Positions 30,365 to 55,290 of a DNA stretch of 64,000 nucleotides are shown here, one piece after another. Positions within the stretch are counted from its first letter, which is position 1. Each line of letters begins with the position of its first letter. A program made the translations under genes and the position numbers. The DNA comes from Candidatus Eiseniibacteriota bacterium (GTDB lineage Bacteria; Eisenbacteria; RBG-16-71-46; JABDJR01), in assembly GCA_963728475.1 (NCBI GenBank), contig CAVSKL010000001.1, positions 714,523 through 778,522 on the forward strand, read 5' to 3'. The notes beneath the pieces were generated by a model that was given only the letters and a program-made list of their open reading frames with translations, did no database searches and was not told the origin of the DNA.

Positions 30365-30403
30365 CGATAGACTTCACAAACTGCTACCTTCTGTGGTAAC
30401 GTC

Positions 30404-30604: not shown

Positions 30605-31071
30605 AGATCACCCGAGTTACCGCAAACAACCGAAAGAAGGTCTTTGAAGTGGCCACGCGGAGTGGTCTGTTCCTTTTTCCCTACGTGGAGGCGGATCCTT
30701 CTCCTTCGCCTTCCGACCGCGTGCAAGAGGTCAGCCCAGACAAGGAGATTGCCCGGGAAGGCTTCACCTACACCCTTGAATCCGGTCGTGAAGGCACCGT
30801 CCACATCGATCACGTGCTCGAGTACAACCAGGACCCCAACTATCTCGCGGACATGCTCCTTTACAACCTGACGGTTGAAGCCCGGAAGCGGGTCGAGCAA
30901 TCCGAGCTAAGCACACGAGAGATCATTCGGAGGCTAGGGACTTCAGCCACCCAGTTCTACCGCCTCCTAGACCAGACGAACTACTCCAAGTCCCTGAAGC
31001 AGTTGGTGGCGTTACTGACCATCCTCGGCTGTGAGGTGGATCTGGTCGTTAGGCAGAAGCGCACTGCATGA
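30601..31071 (+). CDS. DUF2442-like protein with C-terminal HTH-like region
   Basis: 156 aa. Partner position to DUF4160. The TREIIRRLGTSATQFYRLL segment looks like an HTH. Confidence 0.45.
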   Translation: MKITRVTANNRKKVFEVATRSGLFLFPYVEADPSPSPSDRVQEVSPDKEIAREGFTYTLESGREGTVHIDHVLEYNQDPNYLADMLLYNLTVEARKRVEQSELSTREIIRRLGTSATQFYRLLDQTNYSKSLKQLVALLTILGCEVDLVVRQKRTA

Positions 31072-31078
31072 CAGTGCG

Positions 31079-31210
31079 GGCTAACATGGGGTTGAACCTG
31101 ACAAGCCAACCTGTCACGGGCTTGGCTGTGCGGTGCTTCGGCAGAATCCGGATGGCGGCGCGGGCCAAGCCCGCGCCAGCTTGCTTTGCAGGTTAACCTG
31201 ATCGTTGGCC
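31079..31210 (+). other. attC recombination site (long, about 132 bp; family A)
   Basis: GGCTAAC...GGTTGAACCTGACAAGCCAAC...GGCCAAGCCCGCGCC...TTGCAGGTTAACCTG...GTTGGCC. Near-identical in its ends to the attC at 35094-35226. Confidence 0.7.
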
Positions 31211-31545
31211 AGTAGGACGGTCCCTTTTCTCGCTCTTGTCTGGTGCTGACCTAGAAGCGGTTTGTTGGCCTTGGACGCTTTCACCTTCGGTTCGCCGGGG
31301 TCGCTTCGAGCGCGGCTGATCCACAGGCGCCCCGCAGGTGCTTTCCAGGGACCAGTTGCTCTAGAATACCGAGTCGCTGTCTCGTCGGATCGTCGGCCCT
31401 GCTCCGCTGAGACGCCGTGCCTGCCGCTGGGATGCTAACGGGCGCTTCGACACGATCCGGGCGGGCGGCTTCGTCCGCTCGGTTGCGGCGGTCGCTTCCT
31501 GTGGCTACGGTCGGCACCGAATGTGCCGGTCCTGCCATTGGCCTC

Positions 31546-31637
31546 AGCCCAACAGTGGCGGTGTAGCCGACGCCATTGGGGCGGCTCAGCCCGGTCGGCG
31601 GCTTTTCAACACGGCGCGGCTAACCGCCAGCGTTGGG
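31546..31637 (+). other. attC recombination site bounding an ORF-less cassette (31205-31631)
   Basis: GCCCAAC + GTGGCGGTGTAGCCGACGCC ... GGCGCGGCTAACCGCCAGC + GTTGGGC. The outer boxes are perfectly complementary and the inner stems match in 18 of 20 positions. Confidence 0.6.
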
Positions 31638-31666
31638 CACCGAACGACGGGTAGGGAGGTCTGCCC

Positions 31667-32470
31667 ATGGAAAACAGACAAGTTTCCGATACCTGGGAGC
31701 GTGGGAACCCCTATGAACGGTATGTCGGCCGGTGGAGCCGTCAGGTTGCGCCGCCGTTCCTCTCGTGGTTGAGCATTCCGGCCAGTCGGAGGTGGCTCGA
31801 CGTGGGGTGCGGCACGGGAGCGCTATGCGCGGCCATCGCGGACCGCTGCTCGCCTGCCTCGGTCGCCGGCGTCGAGCCTTCCGAGGAATTTCTCAAGACC
31901 GCGAGGGAAAATCTCGCCGACCGGGTGGCGCTTCACCAAGGCAGCGCAACGGCAATCCCGCTTGGTGAGGCGTCAGTCGACGTGGTGGTCTCGGGACTGG
32001 TCCTGAACTTCGTTCCGGATCAGCAGGCCGCCCTGACCGAGATGGCCCGGGTAACCGGCAAGGGGGGCACGATTGCAGCCTACGTCTGGGATTACGCCGG
32101 AAAGATGGAGCTAATGCGATACTTCTGGGACGCGGCAGTCGAGCTCGATCCGAGCGCCGCGAAGCTGGACGAGGGTCCCCGTTTCCCATTGTGTCGCCCG
32201 GAGGCACTCGAGAAGCTCTTCACCAATGCCGGCCTGAAAGGCGTGGAGGTGAAACCCATCGACATACCAACTCGGTTTACGAGTTTCGATGACTACTGGC
32301 AGCCCTTCCTCGGCGGCCAGGGTCCGGCCCCCGCCTACGCCATGTCGCTTGATGAATCCGTGAGAGCGGGCCTTCGCGATCGCATTCGCAAGTTCCTGCC
32401 GACAGCGGCAGATGGCTCGATCTCATTGATTGCGCGTGCTTGGGCGGCTCGCGCAACCGTTGCAATGTAA
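31667..32470 (+). CDS. Class I SAM-dependent methyltransferase
   Basis: LDVGCGTGA motif I and DVVVSGLVLNFV motif II. RBS GGGAGG. Confidence 0.65.
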   Translation: MENRQVSDTWERGNPYERYVGRWSRQVAPPFLSWLSIPASRRWLDVGCGTGALCAAIADRCSPASVAGVEPSEEFLKTARENLADRVALHQGSATAIPLGEASVDVVVSGLVLNFVPDQQAALTEMARVTGKGGTIAAYVWDYAGKMELMRYFWDAAVELDPSAAKLDEGPRFPLCRPEALEKLFTNAGLKGVEVKPIDIPTRFTSFDDYWQPFLGGQGPAPAYAMSLDESVRAGLRDRIRKFLPTAADGSISLIARAWAARATVAM

Positions 32471-32475
32471 GCAGT

Positions 32476-32562
32476 GCCCAACCCTTTGTTGCTGCGGACG
32501 GGCTGCCAGCGTCGTGCCAGTGTGACCGTCATCGTGGCCCGCCGCAGAACGACACGTTATGC
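32476..32562 (+). other. attC recombination site (short)
   Basis: GCCCAAC ... TTGTTGCTGCGGACGGGC / GCCCGCCGCAGAACGACAC ... GTTATGC. Confidence 0.5.
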
Positions 32563-32612
32563 CGCCCAGGCTGCCTGATGCTCGAGGTGGCGAGTTGATG
32601 GGAGGCTACCTG

Positions 32613-33719
32613 ATGAAGCCGATTCTATTGACCGCCGTGGCCCTTGCAGCGGCGGTAATCGGAACGATCACTGGGGAGAGCGCCCACTCGGTCTCATTGC
32701 GAGTCGTGCGGATCGGTGAGATGTCAGTGGATCGGGCCGCCCACCAAGCCACGCTCCTGGACAACGGCCAAGTTCTGATCACTGGCGGTTGTGCCGGGCG
32801 CGGCTGCGATCGCATCCTCGACTCGGTGGAGCTCTACGACCCTGAGGCCCGATCCTTTACGTCCGTAGCTCCGATGACGATCCCGCGAGCCAGCCACGCG
32901 GCGGTAGCCCTCCCGGATGGCCGGGTCCTCGTATCAGGCGGTTGGACGGGTCAGCGTGTGACCGCCAGTGCGGAAATCTACGATCCAAGGGCCGACCGCT
33001 GGACGGTGGTGGGGGACATGACGCAGGCACGGGCGAGCCATATCGCGGTGCCTCTGGGCAGCGGGAAGGTACTCATGGTGGGTGGCGGCGAGGGCGGGCT
33101 GGGTGATCTAGCGTCTGTAGAGGTGTTTGATCCCGCCACATCCCACTTCTCTGCTATGGGCAGGATGCGGACCAATCACTACCTGGCAACTCGGTTGACG
33201 GACGGTCGGGTTCTGATGACCGGAGGGCAGAACGCTCAAGGCGAGGTCCTGGCGTCGGCGGAGATCTTTGATCCCGTCACCGGCAAGTCAGAGCCCACGG
33301 GCAGCATGGCCGTGGCGCGTGTCAAGCATGCGGCGGCGCTACTTCCCGATGGAAGGGTCCTGATCATTGGTGGGTCCGACACCCGCGGTTACGCCGCGCG
33401 ATTTGCGAGCACAGAGATCTATGACCCTGCTACCGGCAAGTTCTCGCTCGGGCCTGACATGCAGTGGGGCCGTCACAAGATCCGTGACGCGGTCGCCGGA
33501 CTATCCTCCGGTGGTGTTGTCGTTGCGGGCGGCGCGTCTCGGCCGGAGCTGTACGATTCCGCCGAGAGCGTGTTCATTCCGGTCGAAGGCCAATTGAGCG
33601 GACCGCTGATGTTCGCAACCGCGACCCACCTCACTAGTGGAGAGGTGCTGGTCCTTGGCGGGTATGACGATCGCACGCAGTCGTCTGCCGGTGCTTGGCT
33701 GGTCGGGCCGCTGCGCTGA
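32613..33719 (+). CDS. Secreted Kelch-repeat beta-propeller protein
   Basis: Signal peptide MKPILLTAVALAAAVIG. Six or more repeats of RxxHxAxxLxDGRVLxxGG. Confidence 0.6.
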   Translation: MKPILLTAVALAAAVIGTITGESAHSVSLRVVRIGEMSVDRAAHQATLLDNGQVLITGGCAGRGCDRILDSVELYDPEARSFTSVAPMTIPRASHAAVALPDGRVLVSGGWTGQRVTASAEIYDPRADRWTVVGDMTQARASHIAVPLGSGKVLMVGGGEGGLGDLASVEVFDPATSHFSAMGRMRTNHYLATRLTDGRVLMTGGQNAQGEVLASAEIFDPVTGKSEPTGSMAVARVKHAAALLPDGRVLIIGGSDTRGYAARFASTEIYDPATGKFSLGPDMQWGRHKIRDAVAGLSSGGVVVAGGASRPELYDSAESVFIPVEGQLSGPLMFATATHLTSGEVLVLGGYDDRTQSSAGAWLVGPLR

Positions 33720-33768
33720 GGTGCCTTCGCGCTCCGCAAACCTGGATTCAGCCGCCCAGTTCGGGGGC

Positions 33769-33835
33769 GGCATAACAGGCCGATGAAGCTGCCGATCGCC
33801 TGCGGCGCCCGCAGCTTATCGGCGGGGCGTTATCC
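33769..33835 (+). other. attC recombination site (short)
   Basis: GGCATAACAGGCCGATGAAGCTGCC ... GCAGCTTATCGGCGGGGCGTTATCC inverted repeat. Confidence 0.5.
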
Positions 33836-33902
33836 GGACCGAGTCAGAAGCAACGTCAGATTGAGCAAGCGATAACCGACCGCAACCGTCACAGGAGCAA
33901 CC

Positions 33903-34313
33903 ATGAGCGAGCAGTTCACGAAGTACGAACGAATCTGGATCGACGGCTTGAATCGAGGCGATGTCTCTATTGTTGATGATGTCTTCGAGCCAAATTGCGT
34001 CATTCACATCGCGGGAAGCCCGGAGCCGAATCTCCCCGTAAGTGGTTTCAAACAGATGATGGCCGGCCTTCTTGCGGCGTTTCCGGACATTCAGCTGACG
34101 ATCGAGGATCAGGTCGTTACGGCGGACAAGGTAGCCACGCGGTGGACGGGCGCTGGCACTCATACTGGACCGCTCGGCGACATCAAGCCAACGGGGCGAC
34201 GAATACGGATCGGCGGTCTGATCCTCGACCACGTGTCTGGGGGGCGCGTGGTCGAGCGTTGGGAGCAGTGGGACCAAGCTGGCATGTTGCAGCAGCTAGG
34301 TGTGCTCGGGTAA
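33903..34313 (+). CDS. SnoaL-like / NTF2-like predicted ester cyclase
   Basis: 136 aa with the typical ERIWIDGLNRGD...VIHIAG...RWTGAGTHTGPLG pattern. Confidence 0.55.
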   Translation: MSEQFTKYERIWIDGLNRGDVSIVDDVFEPNCVIHIAGSPEPNLPVSGFKQMMAGLLAAFPDIQLTIEDQVVTADKVATRWTGAGTHTGPLGDIKPTGRRIRIGGLILDHVSGGRVVERWEQWDQAGMLQQLGVLG

Positions 34314-34349
34314 ACGGGCAGCCGGATGCCGCTCCAAACAAAAATCGGA

Positions 34350-34443
34350 AGGGCCGGTCAACACCGCGCTGGGGCCGATGCCCTTGGCCGGCTCGCGTTG
34401 ACCGGCGGGTCCGCGCGCAGCGCGGCTCGGGGCGGTCGTTAGC
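34350..34443 (+). other. attC-like inverted repeat (boundaries uncertain)
   Basis: GCCGGTCAACACCGCG ... CGCGTTGACCGGC perfect inverted repeat, then GTTAGCT at 34437. Confidence 0.35.
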
Positions 34444-34465
34444 TGAACTCGGGTCTTTGTTCTCG

Positions 34466-34497
34466 CTTGACTGAGAGTATAACCTAGGTTATACTCT
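34466..34497 (+). promoter_or_regulatory. Sigma70-like promoter (TTGACT-17-TATACT) overlapping a perfect 26-bp palindrome (GAGAGTATAACCTAGGTTATACTCTC): probable autoregulated TA operator, near-leaderless antitoxin mRNA
   Basis: Seen directly. The -10 box ends 9 bp before the antitoxin ATG at 34504. Confidence 0.45.
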
Positions 34498-34503
34498 CAT
34501 TTC

Positions 34504-34746
34504 ATGAAGACAGCCATCTCCATTCCAGACCCTCTTTTCAAGGCTGCAGAGCACCTTGCTAGGCGCCTTGGAGTCTCTCGAAGCGAGCTGTATCAGCTCG
34601 CCGTTTCCCGGCTCCTGGACGACCATGATGACGAGGCGACAACGGACGCTCTAAACAAGCTCTACGGAGAGCACCCCGAACTCGCCAAGGTTGATCCAGT
34701 GCTCGATCAACTCCAGCTTGCTGCCTTGCCTAAGGACGACTGGTAG
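34504..34746 (+). CDS. Type II antitoxin (RHH/MazE-like)
   Basis: 80 aa, MKTAISIPDPLFKAAEHLARRLGVSRSELYQLAV. 1-bp overlap with the toxin gene. Confidence 0.6.
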   Translation: MKTAISIPDPLFKAAEHLARRLGVSRSELYQLAVSRLLDDHDDEATTDALNKLYGEHPELAKVDPVLDQLQLAALPKDDW

Positions 34747-35099
34747 TGCTCCGCGGGGAAGTCTGGTGGGCCAATCCGCCTGTCCCCGGGGGATCCGAAC
34801 CGGGCTATCGCCGGCCCGTTCTCGTCGTCTCCTCGGACAACTACAACCGTAGCTCCATCGCCACGGTGGTGGTAGCGGCCATTACTTCGAATGAAATCCT
34901 CGCCGGCGCTCCCGGGAACGTACGGATAACCAAACGACAGAGCGGTCTGCCCAAGGCGTCGGTAGTAAACGTGTCACAGCTCCTCACGGTCAGCAAGGAT
35001 GCGCTCGTTGAGCACGCCGGTATTCTCTCCGATTCGGTCATGAGCAACGTCAGCGCTGGTTTGGTACGCGTGCTTGGATTGCCGAGCATCCGCGGCTAA
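34746..35099 (+). CDS. mazF: Type II toxin, MazF/PemK family endoribonuclease
   Basis: GEVWWANP...RPVLVVS...TVVVAAITS is the PemK/MazF signature. The TAA stop is embedded in the attC R'' box GGCTAAC. Confidence 0.7.
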   Translation: MLRGEVWWANPPVPGGSEPGYRRPVLVVSSDNYNRSSIATVVVAAITSNEILAGAPGNVRITKRQSGLPKASVVNVSQLLTVSKDALVEHAGILSDSVMSNVSAGLVRVLGLPSIRG

Positions 35100-35226
35100 C
35101 AGCAGGTTGAACCTGACAAGCCAAGCTGCCACGGTCTTGGCCGTAGGGTGCCTCGAATAGATCCGGCAAGTTTTCTCGGGCCAAGCCCGCGCCAAGTTGC
35201 CTTGCAAGTTATCCTGGGTGTTAGCC
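35094..35226 (+). other. attC recombination site (long; family A, paralogue of the site at 31079-31210)
   Basis: GGCTAAC...GGTTGAACCTGACAAGCCAAG...GGCCAAGCCCGCGCC...GTTAGCC. Confidence 0.7.
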
Positions 35227-35255
35227 GGCCACAGCCCATGACAGGAGGACGAGGA

Positions 35256-36323
35256 ATGGTGAGGGAATACCGGACCATGAAGGCGGCGGTCTTCGTAGAG
35301 CCCGGCCGTATTGCTTTAGAAGACAGGCCTATTCCCGAGGTGGGGCCCCGCGACGCCCTACTTCGGGTAACGACCACGACGATCTGCGGAACTGACGTAC
35401 ACATCCTCAAGGGCGAGTATCCGGTTGCGCCAGGGCTGATCGTCGGTCATGAGCCCGTGGGCGTCATAGAGGAACTCGGCGCAGCGGTCTCGGGTTACAA
35501 GGTAGGTCAGCGCGTGATCGCGGGCGCCATCACTCCCTGCGGTCAGTGCTACCCGTGCCTCGGCGGGGACCAGGCTCAGTGCGGGGGCAGGGCCATGGGC
35601 GGCTGGCGGCTTGGCAACACCATCAACGGCTGTCAGGCCGAGTACGTCCTGATTCCCGATGCTACGGCAAACCTGGCGCCGATCCCCGACGGCCTGACCG
35701 ACGAGCAAGTGCTCATGTGCCCCGACATCATGAGCACCGGCTTTGGCGGCGCAGAAAGCGGCCGGATTAGGATCGGAGACACGGTCGCAGTGTTTGCGCA
35801 GGGGCCGATCGGGCTCTGCGCCACAGTGGGCGCGAGACTTTCCGGCGCGACCATGATCGTCGCCGTGGATGCCGTGCCCGAACGACTCGCCATGTCCAAG
35901 GCGCTGGGCGCTGACCTCACGATCAATTACAAGGAGCGCGATCCGTTCGAGGCGATACAAGAGGCCACGGGTGGGCGGGGCGTGGACGTGGCCATCGAGG
36001 CCCTCGGCACGCAGGCGACGTTCGAGAACTGCCTGCGCGTGCTGCGGCCGGGCGGCACGCTCTCGAGCCTGGGGGTCTACTCGGGTAAGCTCACGTTGCC
36101 CCTAGACGCCTTTGCCGCGGGGCTTGGCGATCACACAGTCGTGACGACGCTGTGTCCAGGCGGGAAAGAGCGGATGCGCAGGCTGATGAACGTCCTGGCT
36201 TCTAAGCGCGCCGACCTGCGACCGCTCGTGACCCACCGGTTCCCGCTCGACCGGATCGAGGACGCATACGACCTGTTTGCGAGCCAGCGTGATGCGGTGC
36301 TCAAGATCGCCATCACACCATGA
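35256..36323 (+). CDS. Zn-dependent alcohol dehydrogenase family oxidoreductase
   Basis: ICGTDVH, GHEPVG and the GxGxxG Rossmann motif (VFAQGPIGL). RBS AGGAGGA. Confidence 0.7.
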   Translation: MVREYRTMKAAVFVEPGRIALEDRPIPEVGPRDALLRVTTTTICGTDVHILKGEYPVAPGLIVGHEPVGVIEELGAAVSGYKVGQRVIAGAITPCGQCYPCLGGDQAQCGGRAMGGWRLGNTINGCQAEYVLIPDATANLAPIPDGLTDEQVLMCPDIMSTGFGGAESGRIRIGDTVAVFAQGPIGLCATVGARLSGATMIVAVDAVPERLAMSKALGADLTINYKERDPFEAIQEATGGRGVDVAIEALGTQATFENCLRVLRPGGTLSSLGVYSGKLTLPLDAFAAGLGDHTVVTTLCPGGKERMRRLMNVLASKRADLRPLVTHRFPLDRIEDAYDLFASQRDAVLKIAITP

Positions 36324-36376
36324 CCAATGAAGCTATCACCAACCCTTGCTCAGTTCGCGCTGTTCTATGAGGAGCC

Positions 36377-36440
36377 GGCTAACCACAGCATGCGTCTGCC
36401 GGCGCTTCGCGCCGCCCCTGATGCTGGGCATCAGACCCCG
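36377..36440 (+). other. attC-like site, short family B, apparently degenerate R' box
   Basis: GGCTAAC CACAGCATGCG ... CCGGCGCTTCGCGCCGCC ... CTGATGCTGGGCATC. Shares its core with the sites at 40626 and 41319. Confidence 0.4.
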
Positions 36441-36458
36441 CAAGACGAGAGGCCGACC

Positions 36459-37325
36459 ATGACTCACTTGGACAGGGCAAGACAATACCTTGATGCGTGG
36501 AACGCCCGCGATGCCGGCGCGATTGTCAGGACGTTTGCCGCTGAAGGTACCTACCGCGACCCAACAACCGGCGCGCTCTCTGGCGATGCCATCGGCGCGA
36601 ATGCCCAGCGCTTGTGGAGCGCCTTTCCCGACCTCGCGTTCGACATCGCGAACGTAGTGGAGGTCGGCGCCGGCCGGGTGATAGCCGAGTGGATCATGAG
36701 GGGCACGAATACCGGGGTGTTCCAGGGCCTGCCAGCGACCGGCCGGCCGATTTCGGTCCCGGGCGTCGACGTGATCGAGCTCGGGGCAGACGGGATTACT
36801 ACCGTCACCGGGTACTTCGATAGCCGCGCCATTCCAGAGCGGTTGGGTCTTCAAGTGCTGATCCAGCCGTTCTCGGTTGGACCGTTTGCCTTCGGCAATT
36901 CGACGGCGGTGCAATCTGGCAAGAAAACGAAGCCCGGGGCGTTCGCCATCACGACGATCTGGAACCGCGACGTCCAGACAGAGGACGTCCGCGCTTTGAC
37001 TCGGTCGACGGCAACGGAGATGCTGAAGATGGATGGCTTCATCGGCGCGTCCTTCTTTCGGATCGGTGGTCGCGGCGTCACGATTTCGGCCTGGGAAGAG
37101 CCTGAGCAGGTGAAGCAGCTGCGGAGAGGAGGCACGCATTCCGAGGCAATGCGCAGATTCTGGACGGAGTTGGGTGATGCGGCCTTTACGAGCGTGTGGA
37201 TTCCGGATCACGTCAATCCGTTGTGGGTGCGTTGCGCTGTGTGCCGCAAGATGAAGGACTATAAGGTGCAGGCGGGTGTATGCAGCTGCGGCGAACCACT
37301 ACCCGATGCACCCGCTTATTTTTGA
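36459..37325 (+). CDS. SnoaL-like domain protein fused to a C-terminal domain of unknown function
   Basis: N-terminal DRARQYLDAWNARD...TYRDPTTG is the SnoaL/ester-cyclase pattern. The C-terminal 150 aa are unassigned, with a Cys pair CAVC...CSCG. Confidence 0.45.
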   Translation: MTHLDRARQYLDAWNARDAGAIVRTFAAEGTYRDPTTGALSGDAIGANAQRLWSAFPDLAFDIANVVEVGAGRVIAEWIMRGTNTGVFQGLPATGRPISVPGVDVIELGADGITTVTGYFDSRAIPERLGLQVLIQPFSVGPFAFGNSTAVQSGKKTKPGAFAITTIWNRDVQTEDVRALTRSTATEMLKMDGFIGASFFRIGGRGVTISAWEEPEQVKQLRRGGTHSEAMRRFWTELGDAAFTSVWIPDHVNPLWVRCAVCRKMKDYKVQAGVCSCGEPLPDAPAYF

Positions 37326-37410
37326 TGTTGGCTCAGCGAGGTGTAGCAGCCGGTTCCCGCGGACGGTCCGCCGCGCGGCCCCTTCGCGGAACCGGGAACA
37401 TTGGCCTGCG
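37325..37410 (+). other. attC-like inverted repeat
   Basis: CAGCCGGTTCCCGCGG / CCGCGGAACCGGG stems, GTTGGCT ... ATTGGCC ends. Confidence 0.35.
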
Positions 37411-37723
37411 CCGAAAGGAGCAAGGAGCTGAACTGGGAAGCCGCCGGAGCGCTCGGACAAACCGATCGCAGCGGCAGTGCGCGCTTAGTCGCTGAAAGAC
37501 GCCTTGGATCCCGATGCGTGGCGCGCTTGGGAACATCGACTGCTGAAGCACGCCCCGGCGCGAAGGAACCGATCAGGAGCGTCGACGGCTGCCTAACATG
37601 CGCATGATGCTGGCGAGCGCTGTCGCTGGCCGTTGATTTGTTCGCTTGGCATTGAGACGAGAGGGAGTAGAGGGTACGCGCGCCTGTCCAAGTAGAGCGC
37701 TCCCAGCATATCTTCTGTTCATA

Positions 37724-37999
37724 ATGGCCGGTTTCCTGGGTACCGGTTGTACAGCTTCTCGCGAACGACCGCCCTCGTTCTGGGGCGACCCGGCCGTGGC
37801 GACAATTCCAAAGGAACTCCTCGGGCGCTGGGTCCGCTCGTCCGAGGAAAGACATCGGCGATGTCATGGTGTATCGCCCTTGGGCTACCCGTTACCCCCG
37901 TCCCGGTGGCGCGATAGCTTCGAGATTCTTACCGACGGTCGCGTAACTCTGACGACCCTGGGTTCGTTCGATGGACCCGAAGCTATGACGATGCAATAG
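37724..37999 (+). CDS. Small lipoprotein-like ORF, with an in-frame TAG then about 40 more codons to 38119
   Basis: MAGFLGTGCTAS lipobox-like start in a lower-GC segment. Possibly a pseudogene. Confidence 0.3.
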   Translation: MAGFLGTGCTASRERPPSFWGDPAVATIPKELLGRWVRSSEERHRRCHGVSPLGYPLPPSRWRDSFEILTDGRVTLTTLGSFDGPEAMTMQ

Positions 38000-38178
38000 G
38001 AACTTCTTCCCGGGGACGCCATGCGGTTTGCCACATCTGATGGGGCCGAATACCAGAGATTCAGGATTGTCGCGCTGAGCCGCGATCGCCTCACGGTCAC
38101 CCAGATTCGCGTCGGATAAGGCCGGAGTTCAACCTGGCCCACTGCCAGTGTCTCACGACCATAGGGAGAGAGTTCGCC

Positions 38179-38928
38179 ATGGACATTCCAAGGATCTTCA
38201 ACATCACCGAGAGTGCTCATCGCATTCACAACCCGTTCACACCCGAAGCACTCGCTACTCTCGGCGCGGCGTTGCGCCTGGAGCCGGGGACCCGTGTCCT
38301 CGACCTCGGCAGCGGCTCGGGCGAGATGCTGTGCACCTGGGCACGGGATTACGGAATCATTGGCACTGGTATCGACATGAGCCAATTGTTCTCCGATCAA
38401 GCGCAGCGCCGCGCTGAGGAACTCAGTGTCCCCGGCCACGTCGAGTTCATCCACGGCGACGCTGCCGGCTACATAGCCACCGAAAGGGTCGGTGTGGCTG
38501 CCTGTCTCGGCGCCACGTGGATCGGCGGGGGAGTCGCCGGCACCATCGAACTTCTGGCGAAGAGCCTCCGCAGGGGAGGGATCATCCTTATCGGCGAGCC
38601 CTACTGGTTGCATTTACCACCGACAGAAGACGTTGCCAAAGGTTGCCATGCCGGTTCGATAGCCGAATTTCTTGTGCTTTCAGAATTGCTCGCCTCTTTC
38701 GGAAGACTCGACTACGACGTCGTGGAAATGGTTCTCGCAGACCAAGCGGGCTGGGACAGGTACGAGGCAGCCAAGTGGCTCACTATGCGCCGATGGCTCG
38801 AAGTCAATCTTGACGACGAGTTAGCCAAAGATGTTCGAGCCAACCTGACCTCGGAACCCGTCCGCTACGCCACGTACACGCGTGAGTATTTGGGCTGGGG
38901 GGTATTCGCGTTGATGGCGCGGTATTGA
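38179..38928 (+). CDS. Class I SAM-dependent methyltransferase
   Basis: VLDLGSGSGEM motif I and GGIILIGEPYW motif. Confidence 0.65.
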   Translation: MDIPRIFNITESAHRIHNPFTPEALATLGAALRLEPGTRVLDLGSGSGEMLCTWARDYGIIGTGIDMSQLFSDQAQRRAEELSVPGHVEFIHGDAAGYIATERVGVAACLGATWIGGGVAGTIELLAKSLRRGGIILIGEPYWLHLPPTEDVAKGCHAGSIAEFLVLSELLASFGRLDYDVVEMVLADQAGWDRYEAAKWLTMRRWLEVNLDDELAKDVRANLTSEPVRYATYTREYLGWGVFALMARY

Positions 38929-39116
38929 AACGATTGCCGAACGACTCGGAACGTGGTGAACCAATCATGTCTGACAGACCGTCGGAGCAGACGGCTCGGC
39001 GTTGTCACGCCGCCGGCAGAAGCCGGGGCCACGCCAAGACCGCCCGCTGCTCAACCCTGACGTGAGGCACACCTCTTGAAATGTCGATGGTTGACCCGGG
39101 TGCTATTCTTTCCGGG

Positions 39117-39203
39117 TGAAGGTCCGGGACGTGATCAAGCTGCTTGAGCGGGATGGCTGGAAGTTGCCCGCTCCCGCCGCCGGGCGGAGAACGGGACTTT
39201 AAA
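39117..39203 (+). pseudogene. HicA-like toxin N-terminal remnant (28 codons)
   Basis: Translation VKVRDVIKLLERDGWKL matches the conserved N-terminus of YcfA/HicA mRNA interferases. Stop after 28 codons, no partner hicB. Confidence 0.45.
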
Positions 39204-39248
39204 ATAGTGCTGCCGCTCGTGGTCGCGGCTGAGCGGCAATCGTTAGGC
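39150..39248 (+). other. attC-like site ending in a perfect GTTAGGC core
   Basis: GCCGCTCGTGGTCGCGGCTGAGCGGC palindrome followed by GTTAGGC at 39242-39248. Confidence 0.4.
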
Positions 39249-39324
39249 TTCACGACCGCTGCCGAACGTGACCGGGCCGCCCCTTCGGGGCCCAGAAGCC
39301 CATCGAAACCCGAAGGGAGATGAC

Positions 39325-39765
39325 ATGAAGGGCGAGAAGATCTACGGGTACGACGTCGACATTACGGGATTGACGGACTACGGCATTACCCTGGACGCAA
39401 TCCTCTCCGGGCAACGACAGGTCCCACCGCAGGGGGCTAGGATCGATGTAGCGTTCGATGGCCAAGCCATTGGCCGGCTGGCCGGGCGGGTCCGAGGGGT
39501 CGATTACCTCCGCATTCGCCAGGACGGGCGCATCGACCTTGATATTCGGGCGACGATCGAAACGGAGGCTGGGCATCGAATCGCGCTGTCAGCCGGCGGC
39601 GTGGCGGTGCTGCGTCCGACAGAGCCGATCGCTGACCTTTCGGAGAACGTCAGTTTGAATACCGCCGCCGAAGAGTACGCATGGGTCCGAGCGAACCAGA
39701 TCTGGGGCGTGGGTACCGTGAACCTGGCTGCCGGCAAGGTCCACATCGACGGATTCATGCAATAG
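39325..39765 (+). CDS. DUF3237-like protein
   Basis: 146 aa. The Gly/Asp-rich beta-rich pattern (RIDVAFDGQAIGRLAGRVRGVDYLRIRQDGRIDLDIRATIETEAGHRI) resembles DUF3237. Confidence 0.45.
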   Translation: MKGEKIYGYDVDITGLTDYGITLDAILSGQRQVPPQGARIDVAFDGQAIGRLAGRVRGVDYLRIRQDGRIDLDIRATIETEAGHRIALSAGGVAVLRPTEPIADLSENVSLNTAAEEYAWVRANQIWGVGTVNLAAGKVHIDGFMQ

Positions 39766-40189
39766 ACGCTATTCACTGCTGGTTCTGACTGCACGGCTTG
39801 CGTTCGCGCTGGAGCCGTCGGCGCGGTTAGGATCGAGAGCGCTGCGGCTCAGCGCGCACGTTGAGTGCGTCTTTGGAGGACCGGTGGAATTCGACTTCCA
39901 GCCATGGGCAGCTCGCCCGCGAAATCCCCGGCCCCGCCCTGAACCTAGCCTTCTTTCTGGGCGCACTCGTGGCCTGGATGACATCGATGCTACCCGAAGT
40001 CGTGGAGCGGACGCATGTGCGGTGCCGTCGAGAACCGAATCACCGCCGCTGCCGGGGTGGGATTCTCGCTCGTTTTGACTTGGATAGCGCCGGCATTCCG
40101 TGGCAGTGCCCTCTCTGCAGAGCCGACGGGCGCAACTCCGGCCGGGAGGTGCTCACCGGAAACGCCAGGCGAACTTAAGGAGGGACGTC

Positions 40190-40621
40190 TTGACAGACGA
40201 CAGATGGTCAGCGTCGCCAGTTCTCGGCGTCCGACAGGTGCGCCAAGCCGCCGAGTACTACCGCGACGTCCTTGGATTCAGTCTCGATCCGGTTGATGGC
40301 GTCTTTCAGCCTTCGCCGGACGAGCCTGACGGCGTCTACGCAGTAGTGAAGCGTCCGGGCGCATCGATCCACTTCCAAATACGTCGCGACCAAACTCAGC
40401 AACGGCAGCGACCGGCGTTTGAGCCCGACGCCTATGTGTATGTAAACGACGTGAACAGGCTGCATGCGGAGCTTAAGCGCCGTGGTGCGAAGTTCCAGGC
40501 GCCTCCGCGAATGGCGCCTCATGGGATTCGCGAGATGGTCGTCGAGGACTTGAACGGGTACCGGCTCGCGTTCGGCGAACTTCGGCCGGAGGCCAAGGGT
40601 GCAAACAGGCCGGGCGGCTGA
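40190..40621 (+). CDS. VOC family protein (glyoxalase/bleomycin-resistance fold)
   Basis: TTG start after AAGGAGGG. SPVLGVRQVRQAAEYYRDVLGF is the typical VOC N-terminal beta-alpha-beta motif. Confidence 0.55.
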   Translation: MTDDRWSASPVLGVRQVRQAAEYYRDVLGFSLDPVDGVFQPSPDEPDGVYAVVKRPGASIHFQIRRDQTQQRQRPAFEPDAYVYVNDVNRLHAELKRRGAKFQAPPRMAPHGIREMVVEDLNGYRLAFGELRPEAKGANRPGG

Positions 40622-40625
40622 TAGC

Positions 40626-40666
40626 GGCGTGCAACCCGCCGGCGCTTCGCGCCGCAGCTGGGTCGC
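40626..40666 (+). other. Degenerate attC-like remnant (family B core CCGGCGCTTCGCGCCGC)
   Basis: Shares an 18-bp core with the site at 36377. Confidence 0.3.
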
Positions 40667-40758
40667 CTCAGGACCGACCGGAAAGCGGCACCGCCTGGAC
40701 GCTACGCGAAAGGAGTGCGACGCCGCGCCAGATGCGGCGACGAAGGAGGACTGAACAC

Positions 40759-41097
40759 ATGTTCACCAAGAAGGGCGACGCGGCCGTCCTCGCCAAGCTC
40801 CGCGATGCCCCCGCCGAGTATCGGGAGATTGGAGAACGCCTGCATCGAATCATCCGGGAGAGCGTGCCGTCGCTCGAACCAATTGTACGATGGGGACTGT
40901 TCTTTTACGCTAAGGACGGCAAGGACATCTGCTACATCAAACTAGACAAGGATTTCATTGCATTCGGCTTCGGCGAAGTTGTGAACCCCGTTCGCGAGGT
41001 GGGCGCCAACATGCATCCGGTCGCGTGGACCCTGACCGCTCTGGACGCCGCAACGGAAGCCAGGATTAGTGCGCTCGTCAAGAAGGCCGTGGCCTGA
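40759..41097 (+). CDS. DUF1801-like small protein
   Basis: 112 aa. RBS GAAGGAGG. Confidence 0.35.
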   Translation: MFTKKGDAAVLAKLRDAPAEYREIGERLHRIIRESVPSLEPIVRWGLFFYAKDGKDICYIKLDKDFIAFGFGEVVNPVREVGANMHPVAWTLTALDAATEARISALVKKAVA

Positions 41098-41318
41098 GCA
41101 GATGAAGACCAGGAGGAGCGAGAACAAGGCGAAGGTACCGAACCCCCTTTCGGCCAAGTAGGCACCCGTCGCGACGGACAGCCACCCGGCCACTGAGGAA
41201 AGGAGTCGGCGCGTGAGGCCGGATCTGCAGTAACGGATACCGCTCGGATGATCAGGCTGGCCAAGGGAGAATGACCATAGCTGGGGCCGGTCCACCCAGG
41301 ATGTCCGATAGAGAAGCT

Positions 41319-41378
41319 GGCCAACAACAGCATGCGGCCGCCGGCGCAGCGCCCCGCCGCTGATGCTGAATGTTGGGC
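41319..41378 (+). other. attC recombination site (short, 60 bp, family B, canonical)
   Basis: GGCCAAC AACAGCATGCGG ... CTGATGCTGAAT GTTGGGC. R''/R' are perfectly complementary and L''/L' are complementary, immediately before an RBS and ATG. Confidence 0.65.
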
Positions 41379-42749: not shown

Positions 42750-43043
42750 GGTGCGCTTTGGCCGCCCCCCCTATCCTCCCCGCCCTACCTAGCGGGGACG
42801 CACCGGTCGGAGCTCGTGCTCGTCGCGAACGCTGCACGCCACAACACATTCCAGGGCGCAGGTTCCTTCATGACTGAAGACATCTCTCTGCGGGACGTGG
42901 TCGAGTGGCTATTCCGACGAAGGCGCCCACCTGGTCCGAAGGAAGGCGCCCACCCGTTCCGAGCGAAGACGCCCGCCGGTTCCGAAGGATTCCGGCCACC
43001 GTCGGAGCGTAGCGACGCGGGGATTGTGTCGTTGGGTTCCTCG

Positions 43044-43982
43044 TCAGGGTCGTGGGTCGCATCTTACCGGGTCGGTCCCGGGTTGGTAGCCTGATTTTCC
43101 GGTCTCGGGTCCAGGCACCGGGATCCGACCTCGAGAGAAGCTCCAGGAGCGACGATCTCGGCCCGGCCGGGACCTGGGGTACCCCCCCCGGATCACGGGG
43201 TTCTGGATTGGGGTCTTCTTCTTCTTCTTCTTCTTCTTCTCCGTGGCCGGGGTCAGGGGTTCGGTCTGGCGCATCGAGGCTCCTTTGAGCGGGATGCGGT
43301 GCGAGCGGTGCAGGAGCCGGTCCACGATCCCGTCGGCCAGGGTGGGTTCCCCGATCGCCTCGTGCCAGGCGGTGATGGGCAGCTGGGAGGCGATGAGGGT
43401 GGAGGCCCGCTCGTGGCGATCCTCCAGGACCTCGAGCAGGTCGCGCCGCTCGGCGTCGCGCAGCGGAGCCACGAGCCAGTCGTCGATGGCCAGCAGCTCC
43501 ACCTTGAGGAGCCGGGCCAGGAGCCGTTCGTAGGAGCCATCGCCGCGGGCGACGGCGAGTTCGTGAAGGATCCGGGGAGTCCGGACATAGGTGGCGGTGA
43601 ACCCGCGCCGGCAAGCCCGCTCCGCGAACGCGCAGGCGAGGAAGCTCTTGCCGGTGCCGGTGGGTCCGGTCAGCACGAGGTTCTGGTGCTCCTGGATCCA
43701 GCCGCAGGTGCCGAGGGAGAGGACGACCTGGCGGTCGAGCCCCCGGGAGGCGCGGAAGTCGACGTCCTCGAGACAGGCCGGGTAGCGGAGCTTGGCTCCC
43801 TTGAGCCGGCGGGCGAGCTTGCGCTGTTCGCGGTGGGTCCACTCGGCGTCGACCAGGAGGCCGAGGCGCTCGTCGAAGCTCAGGCCGGCGGCCTGGCGGG
43901 AGGCGGTCTGCTGCTCGAAGGCCTCGATCATGGCCGAGAGCTTCATGGCCTGCATCTTGTCCAGGGTGGCTTGGTTCAGCAT
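43044..43982 (-). CDS. istB: IS21-family transposition helper ATPase IstB (no stop at the expected C-terminus, reads through a (GAA)8 tract)
   Basis: Walker A (GPTGTGKS) and the IstB C-terminal IVDRLLHRSHRIPLKGASMR. The expected end is about 43250. The ORF continues to 43044. Confidence 0.75.
   Translation of the reverse strand: MLNQATLDKMQAMKLSAMIEAFEQQTASRQAAGLSFDERLGLLVDAEWTHREQRKLARRLKGAKLRYPACLEDVDFRASRGLDRQVVLSLGTCGWIQEHQNLVLTGPTGTGKSFLACAFAERACRRGFTATYVRTPRILHELAVARGDGSYERLLARLLKVELLAIDDWLVAPLRDAERRDLLEVLEDRHERASTLIASQLPITAWHEAIGEPTLADGIVDRLLHRSHRIPLKGASMRQTEPLTPATEKKKKKKKKTPIQNPVIRGGYPRSRPGRDRRSWSFSRGRIPVPGPETGKSGYQPGTDPVRCDPRP
43218..43241. repeat. (TTC)8 / (GAA)8 trinucleotide microsatellite
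   Basis: Seen directly. Encodes the K8 run in the istB read-through. Confidence 0.85.
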
Positions 43983-45538
43983 GGGATCTCCTTTGGGGCG
44001 GCGTAGTAGGCGGCGCCGCGGATGTTCTCGTGGGAGGGTGCGGCCGGGGCGGGCGACTCGGTCTCCAGCGGGAGCCGGTCGGTTCCGGCGGAGAGGATGT
44101 TCTTGACGGTGCGGTAGCTGTAGGAACGCAGGTGGAGCGCCCGCCGGGAGGCGGCTTCGAGACGCGCCTCACCGTACTTCTTGCCCAGGCGCATGAGGCC
44201 GAGACAGGAGCGGTAGCCCTGCTCGGGGTGGGGCCGGGTGTCGAGGATGTGGGTCACAAGTTCGGCGGCGTGGGGGCCGGTCTTCTCGGCCCAGCGAACG
44301 AGCCGGGAGGGGGTCCACTCGAGGTGGGCCCGGTGGGAGGCGGGCATGTGGTCGCGGTGAGTGGAGTGGCGTCCCCGGCCGCGTAGCCGCCGATGGGAGG
44401 CGACGCGCTTGGAGTGGAAGATGATCTCGACGGTGGTGGCGGTGGTCCGTGCCTCCACCACTTCCTTCAGGAGCTGGTAGGGGACGCTGTAGTAGTTGTT
44501 CTCGACCTCGACGTGGTAGTCGATGTTGACTCGGGGGTAGCTCCAGATGCCCTTCTCGTAGCGGCCGAGGGGGAGGGGCCGCAGGGCGGGGCGATCGAGT
44601 GCTTCGAAGAGCTGGCGGCGGCTCACCTTGAGCTTCTGCATAGGACGGTCGTTGAGGCGGTCGAGCTCGTCGCGGATGGCGGCGTTGAGCTCTTCGAGCG
44701 AGAAGAAGGTGCGGTTGCGGAGCACGGCGAGGATCCAGCGCTGGGCGAGCAGCACGGACAACTCGACCTTCGCCTTATCCTTGGGGCGCCGGACCCGGGC
44801 GGGGATGACCACCGCGCCGTAGTGGGCGGCGAGTTCCTCGTAGGTCCGGTTCACCCCCGGCTCGTAGCGACAGGGGGTGGTGATCCCGCTCTTCAGATTG
44901 TCCGGGACCCAGATCGCCGTGGAACCGCCGAGGTAGGCCGCCATGTTCTGGTGGGCGGTGATCCAGGAGTCCAGATCCTGGCTGGGGGTGGCCTCGGCGT
45001 AGACGTAGCCGCTGGCCCCCAGGGCGGCCACGAACAGCTCGACCTCGGTCACCTCCCCCGTCTTCGGATCCACGATGGCGGGCCTATTGCCCGAGAAGTC
45101 CACGAAGGTCTTCTCGCCGGCCACATGGACCTGGCGCATCGAGGGGGAGAGCTTCCCGGCGAAGCGGTGGTAGAGGTCACAGAAGCGGCTGTACTGGTAC
45201 CCGTCCCGCGGATGACCGGCCCGGTACTCCTGCCACAGCAACGAGAGCGTGACCCCGGGACGGCGCAGCTCCTGGTGGACCCACGCCCAGTCGGGCCGGG
45301 GCCGCCCTCGCTCCGGGAAGGGGTGGGCGGCGGGGAACAGGAGCTGCTCCAGGTCCGTCTCGCTCCGGTCCTCGGCCACCGGCCAGGCCAGCCCGGCCCG
45401 CTGGGCCCGGGCCAGGTACTCTCGGACCGTGGTCCGCCCCAGCCCCAGGCTGCGGGCGATCTGGCGGTGGCTGAGTCCGGCGGCGCGAAGCCGCAGCACA
45501 TCTTGGATCTTGCGCATGGGTAACCTCTTAGCTGGCAC
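43976..45538 (-). CDS. istA: IS21-family transposase IstA
   Basis: 520 aa with an N-terminal HTH (LSHRQIARSLGLGRTTV) and an IS21 DDE core. Overlaps the istB start. Confidence 0.75.
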   Translation of the reverse strand: MPAKRLPMRKIQDVLRLRAAGLSHRQIARSLGLGRTTVREYLARAQRAGLAWPVAEDRSETDLEQLLFPAAHPFPERGRPRPDWAWVHQELRRPGVTLSLLWQEYRAGHPRDGYQYSRFCDLYHRFAGKLSPSMRQVHVAGEKTFVDFSGNRPAIVDPKTGEVTEVELFVAALGASGYVYAEATPSQDLDSWITAHQNMAAYLGGSTAIWVPDNLKSGITTPCRYEPGVNRTYEELAAHYGAVVIPARVRRPKDKAKVELSVLLAQRWILAVLRNRTFFSLEELNAAIRDELDRLNDRPMQKLKVSRRQLFEALDRPALRPLPLGRYEKGIWSYPRVNIDYHVEVENNYYSVPYQLLKEVVEARTTATTVEIIFHSKRVASHRRLRGRGRHSTHRDHMPASHRAHLEWTPSRLVRWAEKTGPHAAELVTHILDTRPHPEQGYRSCLGLMRLGKKYGEARLEAASRRALHLRSYSYRTVKNILSAGTDRLPLETESPAPAAPSHENIRGAAYYAAPKEIPC

Positions 45539-46258
45539 GCGGGGTCCTCCTCTGGGATGAGAGAAAGGCTCAGCGTAGCCCGGTTACCCCGCGCCGCCAC
45601 CCCCGAACCGGGGTGGGCGGCTTCGTTCGGAACGGTGGGCGCCTTCCCTCGGAACGGTGGGCGCCTTCCCTCGGAACGGTGGCCGGCTTCGCTCGGAATC
45701 AGCGGGCGCGATCAGTCGGAAGGGTGGGCGTCTTCGCTCGGAATCGGGGGGCGGAATCGCTCGGAATAGTCAACCTGATTCCGCTCAAGGACTCCTTCAG
45801 GGTGTCGATGGCGATCAGGGAGTCGGAGCGCTCGGCGCTACTTGGGGCTGGCCACATGGCAAACTACGGAAGCCTGCTCGCTTCCGCCCGCAAGTTCGCG
45901 GAGGGGTTCTCGGTGGTCTTCGATGTCACAACGCACTCCTCCTACGATCACTGCAGCCGCTTCGTTTCCTGGATCATTGCGGCGCGCCGCTAGCTGCTTG
46001 GAGGACTTTGCGGCCCCCCCCGCCTCGCCCTTGAGCGGTGAGGACGCCAGAGACACACGCCCGACCCGGGACTCTTGCTTTCCGAACCCCGGCACGGCGG
46101 GCGGTGGCGCCAGGGAACCGGAAGATGAAGGCGGCAGACTTGGTAGAGCCTGCCCGTATCGCCTTGGGCGCGTTGCCGCGGGACGCATGGCTGGCGGAGG
46201 GCATCCTGGAACTCGTATGCACCATCGGCGGTCCTGGCGGTGGAGAGAGGAGAGTACG

Positions 46259-46603
46259 ATGAGTAGCGAACATTTGCCGCCCGAGACGAGAGGGGTCACG
46301 GTGAAGCTGCTGGCAACGGTCGACCTTGGCCCTGAGATCGAGGGCATGGCCGGGCGCCGGCTTCGAATGCGGATGGTGACCATCGATCCCGGCGGGGTTT
46401 TCGGCCCGGTTCACGACCACAAGGGCAGACCGGGCATCGTCTACATCCTGCAAGGAACGATCACCGACCATCAAAACGGAGCCGCTACCGACTATGGGCC
46501 GGGGGTGGGCTGGCCCGAGGACAGGAACACGACCCACTGGCTCGAGAACCGGGGACAGGTTCCGGCGGTGGAGATCTCGGTCGATATAGTCGGGCATGAT
46601 TAG
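46259..46603 (+). CDS. Cupin domain protein
   Basis: 114 aa. RBS GAGAGGAG. G(X)5HxH-like FGPVHDHKG cupin motif. Confidence 0.5.
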   Translation: MSSEHLPPETRGVTVKLLATVDLGPEIEGMAGRRLRMRMVTIDPGGVFGPVHDHKGRPGIVYILQGTITDHQNGAATDYGPGVGWPEDRNTTHWLENRGQVPAVEISVDIVGHD

Positions 46604-46897
46604 GCTCAGGCTGGCTATCAGAACCGGCCGAGGCCGGCGTGCGGCCGATTTGGCCGCCCGCCCGCCGGACTTCACCTTCCTATCGCGCGACGGTCAGAGA
46701 CACTGGACGCCGCGCACCACCAGCTTCTTCGGCCATCTCGGCCCGAAGAAGGTGAAATGGCTGGTCACGAGAAAGGTGGATCTGTAACCGAAGCGCCGCG
46801 CGCTCTTGATAGACTTGGGATGCGGTCCGACTCTCCCTTGGCCGCCGCTTCCTGCGGCAGATGCATTTTCCGTCGGGCGCCCCACACCGGAGGTCAC

Positions 46898-47266
46898 ATG
46901 ACGCTCAGCCGTCTTGTCCCCATGCAGCCGGTCACCAGCATGCCGGCCAGCGTGAACTTCTACCAGAAGCTCGGCTTCGTTGTTGAAGACCGAAATGAGA
47001 AATGGGGTTGGGCCATGCTGCGTTGCGGCAGCTGCCAGATCATGCTCGACCAGTCCATCAATCTTCACCCCGGTGTCCCCAGAACCTCGGTTCTCTACCT
47101 CTATCCGGAGGACCTGGTTGACTTTCACCGTCGTGCCCGGGACAACGGACTCCCCGTTCCCGAACTGGAGGTCACGTTCTACGGCATGAACGGGTTTCGT
47201 GTGGAGGACCCGGACGGCAATCCATTGTGGATCGGCCAAGCAGTGGGGACGCCGGAACATGCCTGA
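46898..47266 (+). CDS. VOC family protein (bleomycin-resistance/glyoxalase-like)
   Basis: 122 aa. Typical NFYQKLGF start and a C-terminal FRVEDPDGN motif. Confidence 0.55.
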   Translation: MTLSRLVPMQPVTSMPASVNFYQKLGFVVEDRNEKWGWAMLRCGSCQIMLDQSINLHPGVPRTSVLYLYPEDLVDFHRRARDNGLPVPELEVTFYGMNGFRVEDPDGNPLWIGQAVGTPEHA

Positions 47267-47367
47267 CAACTTCTGCGAGGCTCCGCCTCGCGCCGTGGGT
47301 GACCGGGGCCGCGGCCAACGCGATCGATAGAGAGGGTAGCCCGCAGCCGGACAGCGGGAGGAGCGAG

Positions 47368-47787
47368 GCGATGGCATCCGTCGACGACCCGGGCTCGCAA
47401 CGCTTCTACCATGGGACGAAGGCCGACCTCAGGCCGGGGGACCTGATCGGGCCCGGCTATGGTTCCAACTACGGCAAGAGGAAGCGGGCGGCCTACGTCT
47501 ATCTGACCGCCACCTTGGACGCGGCCGCATGGGGGGCCGAGCTGGCCCTCGGTGAAGGACCAGGCAGAATCTACATCTCGGAGCCGACCGGCCCGATAGA
47601 AGATGATCCCAATCTGACGGACAAGAAGTACCCGGGCAATCCGACGAAATCGTACCGCTCCCGCGACCCGCTTCGGATCACGGGCGAGATCACGGATTGG
47701 CGGGGGCACTTCTCCGAAGAGCTCAAAGCCATGAAGGACAACCGGGAGCGACTCAAGCGTCTTGGAATTGAGGCGATCGAGGACTGA
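47368..47787 (+). CDS. arr: Arr-family NAD+--rifampin ADP-ribosyltransferase
   Basis: 139 aa. FYHGTKADLRPGDLI, AAWGAELA, YISEPTGPIEDDPNLTDKKYPGNPTKSYRSRDPLRITGEITDWRGH and RLKRLGIEAIED match recalled Arr-2/Arr-ms blocks almost position for position. Confidence 0.75.
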   Translation, partial: AMASVDDPGSQRFYHGTKADLRPGDLIGPGYGSNYGKRKRAAYVYLTATLDAAAWGAELALGEGPGRIYISEPTGPIEDDPNLTDKKYPGNPTKSYRSRDPLRITGEITDWRGHFSEELKAMKDNRERLKRLGIEAIED

Positions 47788-48147
47788 GGAGCGGCCGGGT
47801 ACCTAGAGTCAATCCCGGCGACCGACCTTCGTCGAACTTGAGCATGTCGCCGGTCGCCTTGCCGGCAAAGCCGGGAGTCTCGTGCTCCAGCGGACAGGGG
47901 TCCTCGAGGACGGGCAGGCGAAGGAATCGTACGCCGAGATTCCGGGATCCGGCACGGGGGAGCTGGACGGTCTCGCCGGGCATGGGGAGTCCGCAGTCGA
48001 GCATGGGATGGAGCATCCGTTCTCGCCCGACTACGACTTACCGTAGCCCACGAGTGGCGTCCGCCCCGGAACCTCGTTTTGCGAACTCGGCTGAATGCGG
48101 GTCAGCGCGAAGAGGCGTTTGACGAGGTGTTCCGCCCCTGGCGAGGG

Positions 48148-50364: not shown

Positions 50365-50371
50365 GGCCCCC

Positions 50372-55212: not shown

Positions 55213-55290
55213 GCTGCCGCGGTGTGATCGTCCACGACGCCTGGGCCTACCGGCGGGTCCGGCAACTGCTCGAGCACCAAGGCGCGGTCG

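Follow-up and report, generated by a model that had tools for sequence, protein, structure and literature searches.

The 64,000-nucleotide stretch of DNA analysed here (the window) contains an intact arr gene (47371..47787, plus strand), which encodes an NAD(+)--rifampin ADP-ribosyltransferase of 138 amino acids and was assigned by Pfam and NCBIfam scores and by matches to solved structures. The reading frame is uninterrupted from the ATG at 47371 to the TGA at 47785-47787. The initial annotation had given this plus-strand ORF as 47368-47787; the ORF itself is upheld, and only its start was set one in-frame codon too early. A Shine-Dalgarno-like sequence, GGGAGGAG, is read from the same strand at 47356..47363, 7 nt upstream of the start codon. 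No candidate sigma-70-like promoter was found in the region 45700-48300, and promoters of the sigma-70 type may not be those of the host. The gene may be expressed from a local or a read-through promoter.

Arr enzymes transfer ADP-ribose from NAD+ to a hydroxyl of the ansa chain of rifamycins, and the drug then no longer binds to the beta subunit of RNA polymerase. The match of the arr product to this family is far beyond chance. It scores 162.6 bits with the Pfam profile PF12120 (Arr-ms; cutoff 25), covering positions 1-99 of 99, and 213.5 bits with the NCBIfam equivalog model NF033144 (rifampin_ARR), covering positions 2-131 of 131 and exceeding the curated cutoff of 130 by 83 bits. The solved structures of Arr-ms (2HW2 and 9IAF, E-value 7e-46) and of ARR-2 (9IBA, E-value 1e-40) match the product approximately from end to end. 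The suggestion that the ORF is of the Arr type along its whole length is thus confirmed.

The alignment with Arr-ms of Mycobacterium smegmatis (MSMEG_1221, structure 2HW2; 138 vs 143 amino acids) has 56% identity over 128 residues and is gapless, and thus residues can be transferred one to one. The HGT motif is retained as FYHGTKADL. His19, Tyr49 and Asp84 of Arr-ms, which are needed for activity according to Baysarowich et al. as cited in PMC13246000, correspond to H14, Y44 and D79. The rifampin contacts in helix alpha-1 of Arr-ms are D55, A56, W59, G60 and L63 (PMC8597724), and all five are identical in the arr product (D50, A51, W54, G55, L58). Loss of the H-G-T motif or of active-site residues, or an identity below the level of the family, had been named beforehand as observations that would speak against the assignment; the motif and the catalytic trio are present, and both family cutoffs are cleared. 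The ORF looks functional, and its product is probably an active Arr enzyme.

Directly 5' of arr lies a gene of the glyoxalase/bleomycin-resistance fold (46895..47266, plus strand; PF00903, 42 bits; GC3 0.74), and upstream of it a Cupin_2 gene (46262..46603, plus strand; PF07883; GC3 0.77). The 3' end of arr is overlapped by a doubtful gene on the minus strand, an 87-codon ORF (ORF87, 47753..48016), which was taken from the list of open reading frames and has no Pfam or NCBIfam match. The trio glyoxalase-arr-ORF87 occurs with 100% identity on the Logan contig L001 (1.6 kb), where ORF87 is called as a gene; this contig places the same organism in run ERR11718636. The exact Arr and MaeB sequences are also encoded on a 2.07-Mb contig in NCBI/ENA. 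The complete order of genes beyond an IS21-family element, described below, is cupin, glyoxalase-fold gene, arr, antisense ORF87, a minus-strand DUF2089/SHOCT pair and a DUF1801 gene.

The cupin gene (46278-46605) is 86% identical at the nucleotide level to a cupin gene of a betaproteobacterial MAG (L065, 7686-8013). At that locus, which has no integron features, an arr homologue of opposite orientation is found at a distance of 1.3 kb from the cupin gene. The likeness of the two cupin genes suggests a recent inter-phylum transfer of small genes, and the proximity of cupin and arr in L065 indicates that such genes do travel between lineages. No known plasmid or mobile element carrying the whole arr block was found; the matches were to the arr gene only.

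The nucleotide composition of arr (62.8% GC, GC3 0.79) differs from that of the flanks (72.2% GC in 1-26500 and 70.3% in 50100-64000) and of core genes such as maeB and the Mem_trans gene (GC3 0.94-0.95). The initial annotation had noted a GC content of about 62% and a deviating codon usage against a host background of about 70%, and both observations hold. The GC3 of the cupin, glyoxalase and arr genes (0.74-0.79) is similar to that of proven cassette genes (0.69-0.79), whereas the DUF2089 pair and the DUF1801 gene downstream of arr are nearer to the host (0.85-0.92). The cupin-glyoxalase-arr block (~2.2 kb, 45.8-48.0 kb) forms the distal end of a low-GC region of ~20 kb (29.6-49.6 kb), which runs from an attI site onwards and is unbroken except for the IS21 element. 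Directly after the DUF1801 gene, exactly where the GC content returns to the host level, there are 2.5 tandem copies of a 48-bp unit (CCGC..GAGACACCGCGCC.AGGAGAACTCC.ACCGGT.AGCTGCG; 49641-49736). A role of this repeat as an att site or as the boundary of an island was considered and not accepted; the window contains no further copy of it.

The low-GC region is preceded by an integron integrase pseudogene, intI (28598..29554, plus strand; TIGR02249, 463.9 bits, cutoff 265). The match to the model is continuous across an in-frame TAG codon at 28934-28936 and covers the full model length, including the IntI-specific additional domain. Apart from this codon the gene is intact, and the catalytic RHRY region is preserved. 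The corresponding alignment column of five relatives contains glutamine in three, glutamate in one and histidine in one; given glutamine (CAG) in relatives, a single CAG-to-TAG change would explain the stop codon. Thus intI looks like a recent pseudogene, an assembly error being less likely. With intI reduced to a pseudogene, the array by itself mobilises nothing at present.

The intI pseudogene is on the same strand as the cassettes, that is, the integron is of the "inverted" type. This arrangement is characteristic of a sub-clade of soil and freshwater IntIs (PMC8352920). The intact relatives P0243 and P0245 (79-81% identity), as well as more distant ones, have the same co-orientation. The locus shares with the described inverted-orientation chromosomal integrons (PMC8352920) the co-oriented intI, the additional domain, canonical attC sites and toxin-antitoxin cassettes. 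It differs in the nonsense codon in intI, in several degenerate attC sites, and in an IS21 element that truncates or interrupts the array.

A NusG-like gene lies directly 5' of intI (27460..28374, plus strand; weak matches to the NGN and KOW domains, with 22.8 bits for Pfam NusG) and is mentioned here as context only. A homologue with 52% identity is found directly upstream of the intact intI of L086 (9104-9817); the five other relatives checked (L085, L087-L090) do not have a NusG-like gene next to intI. It is a matter of speculation whether a specialised NusG paralogue could act as an antiterminator for transcription reading into the co-oriented cassette array.

The junction of attI and the first cassette is marked by a GTTAGCC core (29911..29917, plus strand). 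The recognisable cassette array, defined by nine attC sites and by gene content, spans 30263..41378 on the plus strand. The sites are at 30263-30364, 31079-31210, 31547-31638, 32476-32562, 33770-33835, 34309-34403, 35094-35226, 38955-39096 and 41319-41378, the last recognisable one. All nine have the canonical architecture, with a 7-bp R'' box xxxxAAC, an R' box GTTxxxx and extended, imperfectly matching arms, the R''-L'' side having extra bases. Degenerate attC remnants are seen near 36377 and 37591. The locus thus comprises an integron platform, namely an IntI with the additional domain (as a pseudogene) and at least two adjacent attC sites. The proposed environmental chromosomal integron in a high-GC chromosome is indeed present, with an integrase match of 464 bits and at least nine attC sites.

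The cargo of the array is typical for a chromosomal integron. It includes methyltransferases, Kelch, SnoaL, an RHH/MazF toxin-antitoxin pair, ADH, glyoxalases, DUF1801 and TspO. Two cassettes, 30365-31210 and 34504-35226, have nearly the same long attC (132-133 nt, 79-82% identity). Both are toxin-antitoxin-like: the first encodes a small ORF and an HTH protein, and the second RHH and MazF proteins. Toxin-antitoxin cassettes are stabilising cargo typical of sedentary chromosomal integrons. The attC sites at 31081-31197 and 35093-35227 are 85% and 77% identical, respectively, to one attC of the array of L085. In L085, non-coding DNA immediately 5' of the intact intI (9451-9683) matches fragments of the glyoxalase gene of the last cassette (in 41404-41842 of the window) with 73-83% identity, which suggests that candidate cassette remnants occur on the "wrong" side of the L085 integrase.

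A three-gene unit ending at 42749 follows the last attC (41319-41378), and after it there is an IS21-family element of 2,867 bp (42906..45772, minus strand; NCBIfam transpos_IS21 283.8 bits, Pfam IstB_IS21 238.5 bits). It contains istA (45538-43976) and istB (43982-43044), both on the minus strand. The element is complete: the ends TG[G/A]CTATTCCGA are intact, and there are subterminal repeats of 22-23 bp, three copies at one end and about six at the other. No target-site duplication was found at the element, the flanks being GGTCGAG and ACCTGAT. The stretches that the element now separates may therefore never have been neighbours, which hints that an IS-mediated rearrangement took place at the border of the array. 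A further candidate IS21 end, the third, at 50425 would make the arr block IS-bracketed; it was rejected as a chance match, since the similarity extends over 11 nt inside a methyltransferase ORF. An ORF split by the insertion was also considered and rejected, as the joined flanks give no continuous reading frame.

The arr gene is 17.5 kb 3' of attI on the same strand. It is separated from the last attC (41378) by 6 kb that include the IS21 element, so it is not part of an uninterrupted array. The attC sites were identified by a home-made scorer that combines complementarity of the R'' and R' boxes with a gapped alignment of the arms, rather than by IntegronFinder or HattCI. A covariance model of attC had been attempted and abandoned, as nothing but the 7-bp R''/R' boxes could be matched in MAFFT alignments. 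Spacers and bulges vary from site to site, which left no structurally consistent alignment, and the calibrated scorer was used instead. Host flanks (42 kb) served as the negative control, and the arrays of L085 and L086 as positive ones. In L085 the scorer found seven to eight attC sites 3' of the intact intI, and it found several in the array of L086. Seven of the nine attC sites of the window have arm-pairing scores of 14.5-21; the maximum is 14 in the 42 kb of host flank and 12 in the DNA after the IS21 element. Seven sites are thus above every pair in the flank, and two (34309 and 38955) are within the background range.

None of the candidates in the 4.3 kb after the IS21 element (best score 12) is adjacent to arr. 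Strict and relaxed scans for AAC...GTT pairs, combined with minimum free energy folding, yielded nothing near the gene either. R' cores of the form GTT[AG][GTA][CG]C number 22 in the 13.4-kb array and 17 in 43.4 kb of flank, whereas the 4.3 kb after the IS21 element contain a single one, inside the glyoxalase ORF. Folding z-scores against shuffled sequences are -4.0 and -2.5 for two true attC sites and range from -0.93 to +0.27 for the flanks of arr. No attC was found at the 3' end of arr in 47780-48100 (z -0.44 and +0.27, no match to cores or arms). No upstream R' boundary was found, as the spacer 47267-47370 is without a GTT core (z -0.93 and -0.37).

Several weaker candidates were considered and rejected. 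Firstly, a vestigial attC at 47313-47376 (GGCCAAC...GATGGCA), overlapping the ATG of arr, folds weakly (-11.7 kcal/mol vs -21.7 for a true 60-nt attC) and has no L''/L' complementarity. The R''-like GGCCAAC with which it begins (47313, 58 nt 5' of the ATG) may be what is left of an eroded attC. Secondly, an inverted repeat across the stop codon (47742-47757/47803-47818) contains no AAC or GTT cores and hence is not attC-like. Finally, a hairpin region in the gap between the cupin and glyoxalase genes (46618-46785) has degenerate cores that are not above background. An intact attC beside arr can be excluded. Since two accepted attC sites score in the background range, a badly eroded one could be missed, and such a site is possible. 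The initial annotation had described arr as a cassette of the integron. This is not borne out, with no flanking attC and with the IS21 element in the 6 kb that separate the gene from the last one.

In related genomes, identified by MaeB proteins that are 82-84% identical, the segment corresponding to 26.5-56.4 kb of the window is replaced by ~1.7 kb between the Mem_trans gene and maeB. This short segment contains Hist_deacetyl in L082 and L083, and a methyltransferase and Sua5 in L084. Thus the whole region 26.5-56.4 kb is accessory. Among named organisms, the nearest MaeB homologues are 62-66% identical and come from Acidobacteriota and KSB1. The integron of L085 is intact and ~19 kb distant, with a radical-SAM gene in between. 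The different placement of that integron, together with the replacement of 30 kb, shows that the neighbourhood is a rearrangement hotspot.

The Arr family is very large, with at least 8,000 matches. The nearest genomic relatives of the arr product are 66-83% identical and come from Cyanobacteria, Acidobacteriota, Bacteroidota, Alpha- and Betaproteobacteria, Actinomycetota and others. The closest are chromosomal Arr proteins of environmental bacteria (Floridaenema, Pyrinomonadaceae, Paraburkholderia, Rhodothermales and others), which align over the full length at 66-83% identity; none reaches 90%. Their genes stand alone and have no convincing flanking attC, whereas arr of the window is in a low-GC block adjoining an integron. 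In the immediate flanks of the best 80 arr loci there are three borderline attC-like scores of 14 or more, one downstream and two upstream, and thus members of this Arr clade are normally stand-alone chromosomal genes. The top-scoring homologues among the matches listed are fusions of ~230-242 amino acids with two tandem Arr domains, each with an HGT motif (P0001, P0005, P0032; L045 407-1155). Such fusions are common in cyanobacteria (Phormidium, Desertifilum, Trichormus) and metagenomes, and their bit scores exceed that of the self-match (386 vs 311).

Arr-ms, which shares with the arr product the gapless alignment, the catalytic trio and the alpha-1 residues, comes from another host lineage and another genomic context. 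With the NCBIfam "exception" model for Arr-ms the product scores 165.9 against a cutoff of 250, and thus it does not belong to that allele group. Arr-2 and Arr-3 of class 1 integron cassettes have the same family, fold and active site. However, they are only 50-51% identical to the arr product by tblastn (55% for Arr-2 in the HMMER alignment), and Arr-2 has an insertion of four residues relative to it. Moreover, the arr-2 and arr-3 cassettes have attC sites and are mobilised by IntI1, whereas arr of the window has no attC and the neighbouring integrase is dead. The arr-2 and arr-3 genes are found on ~1,700 plasmids; the best match to arr on an enterobacterial plasmid is 56.9% identical (H2).

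It had also been proposed that arr is a candidate progenitor or reservoir of the clinical cassettes. A progenitor was taken to require an identity of ~95% or more to the mobilised allele. As the identity to Arr-2 and Arr-3 is 50-55%, and the nearest relatives are elsewhere, arr is not their progenitor. Nor is it a mobilisable reservoir in the integron sense, given the dead integrase and no attC. Neither part of the proposal is sustained.

The reading that we prefer, with a probability of about 0.8, is that arr is a functional-looking, horizontally acquired Arr gene in a low-GC block beside an inactivated integron of the inverted type, and not a cassette that can be mobilised today. The gene would have been gained horizontally together with the cupin and glyoxalase-fold genes in the ~2.2-kb block, the route of arrival being a reconstruction from the sequence. 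The low-GC region would begin with the inverted-type integron, whose integrase was probably inactivated by the one CAG-to-TAG nonsense change. At present arr would not be mobilisable, as it has no attC, lies 6 kb past the last one, and is separated from it by an IS21 element without a target-site duplication.

How the block came to lie beside the array can be explained in two ways, both tentative. One possibility is that cupin, glyoxalase and arr are fossil cassettes from a former distal part of the array, which have lost their attC sites by erosion, the IS21 element having been inserted into the array later. Indeed, the GC3 of the block is like that of the cassettes and not like that of the host (0.94), and the low GC content is continuous from attI to ~49.6 kb apart from the IS. 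Decay of attC is seen already within the array at 36377 and 37591, and the gene families are ones that cassettes typically carry; glyoxalase and DUF1801 genes are present in the proven array as well. The R''-like GGCCAAC at 47313 also agrees with this history. On the other hand, there is no residual hairpin signal, close relatives of arr elsewhere are not cassette-borne, and, as no duplication exists at the IS21 element, its two sides perhaps never were contiguous.

The same absence of a duplication, at an element with intact ends, speaks for the other possibility, namely that the block is unrelated to the integron. It would then have been juxtaposed with it by an IS21-mediated rearrangement (an adjacent deletion or an inversion) or by the separate insertion of an island. 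The loss of synteny with relatives over 26.5-56.4 kb is consistent with this origin, as is the fact that cupin and arr are neighbours in L065 with no sign of an integron. However, there is a single copy of the IS in the window, the candidate third end at 50425 being a chance match, and the composition of the block resembles that of cassettes. Since the composition fits either origin, the two are given roughly equal weight, and each is doubtful taken singly.

It is improbable that the product, although an enzyme of the Arr fold, has a physiological substrate other than rifamycins, for example in a stress role as proposed for the mycobacterial Arr. Arr homologues are widespread in bacteria not known to meet rifamycins, and a role of Arr-ms in the DNA-damage response is ascribed to Stallings et al. 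2011 in PMC8597724. However, all catalytic and rifampin-contacting residues are kept, and the score is well above the equivalog cutoff. Furthermore, Arr-ms, Arr-1 and Arr-X all inactivate rifamycins in published tests (PMC13246000).

Finally, that arr is a bona fide cassette, currently mobilisable by its own attC, is very improbable: it is a small ORF of cassette-like composition downstream of the array and on the same strand, and Arr genes such as arr-2 and arr-3 are known cargo of class 1 integrons, but there is no attC on either side and one R' core in 4.3 kb vs 22 in 13.4 kb, intI is a pseudogene, the IS21 element intervenes, and the best 80 arr loci give only three borderline attC-like scores.

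Having no recombination site of its own and being too distant from the clinical arr genes, arr of the window is an ordinary resistance-gene homologue, a further member of a known and widespread family. By itself this matters little, as environmental Arr is already known to be widespread and the NCBI pipeline would name the gene automatically. The identity of 51-55% says nothing about the origin of the clinical arr-2 and arr-3 cassettes. The locus also calls for caution: a resistance homologue 3' of a chromosomal integron should be counted as a cassette, or as belonging to the "mobilisable resistome", only if it has an attC.

If the cupin, glyoxalase and arr genes are fossil cassettes, they would once have been carried by a sedentary chromosomal integron of the inverted type, in an uncultured lineage of high GC content, and would since have become fixed as ordinary chromosomal genes. 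The route of fixation would then have involved erosion of attC sites, a single nonsense mutation in intI and insertion of an IS21 element. The locus would be a snapshot of the domestication of an integron-borne resistance gene, and it would follow that environmental integrons of the inverted type have carried Arr.
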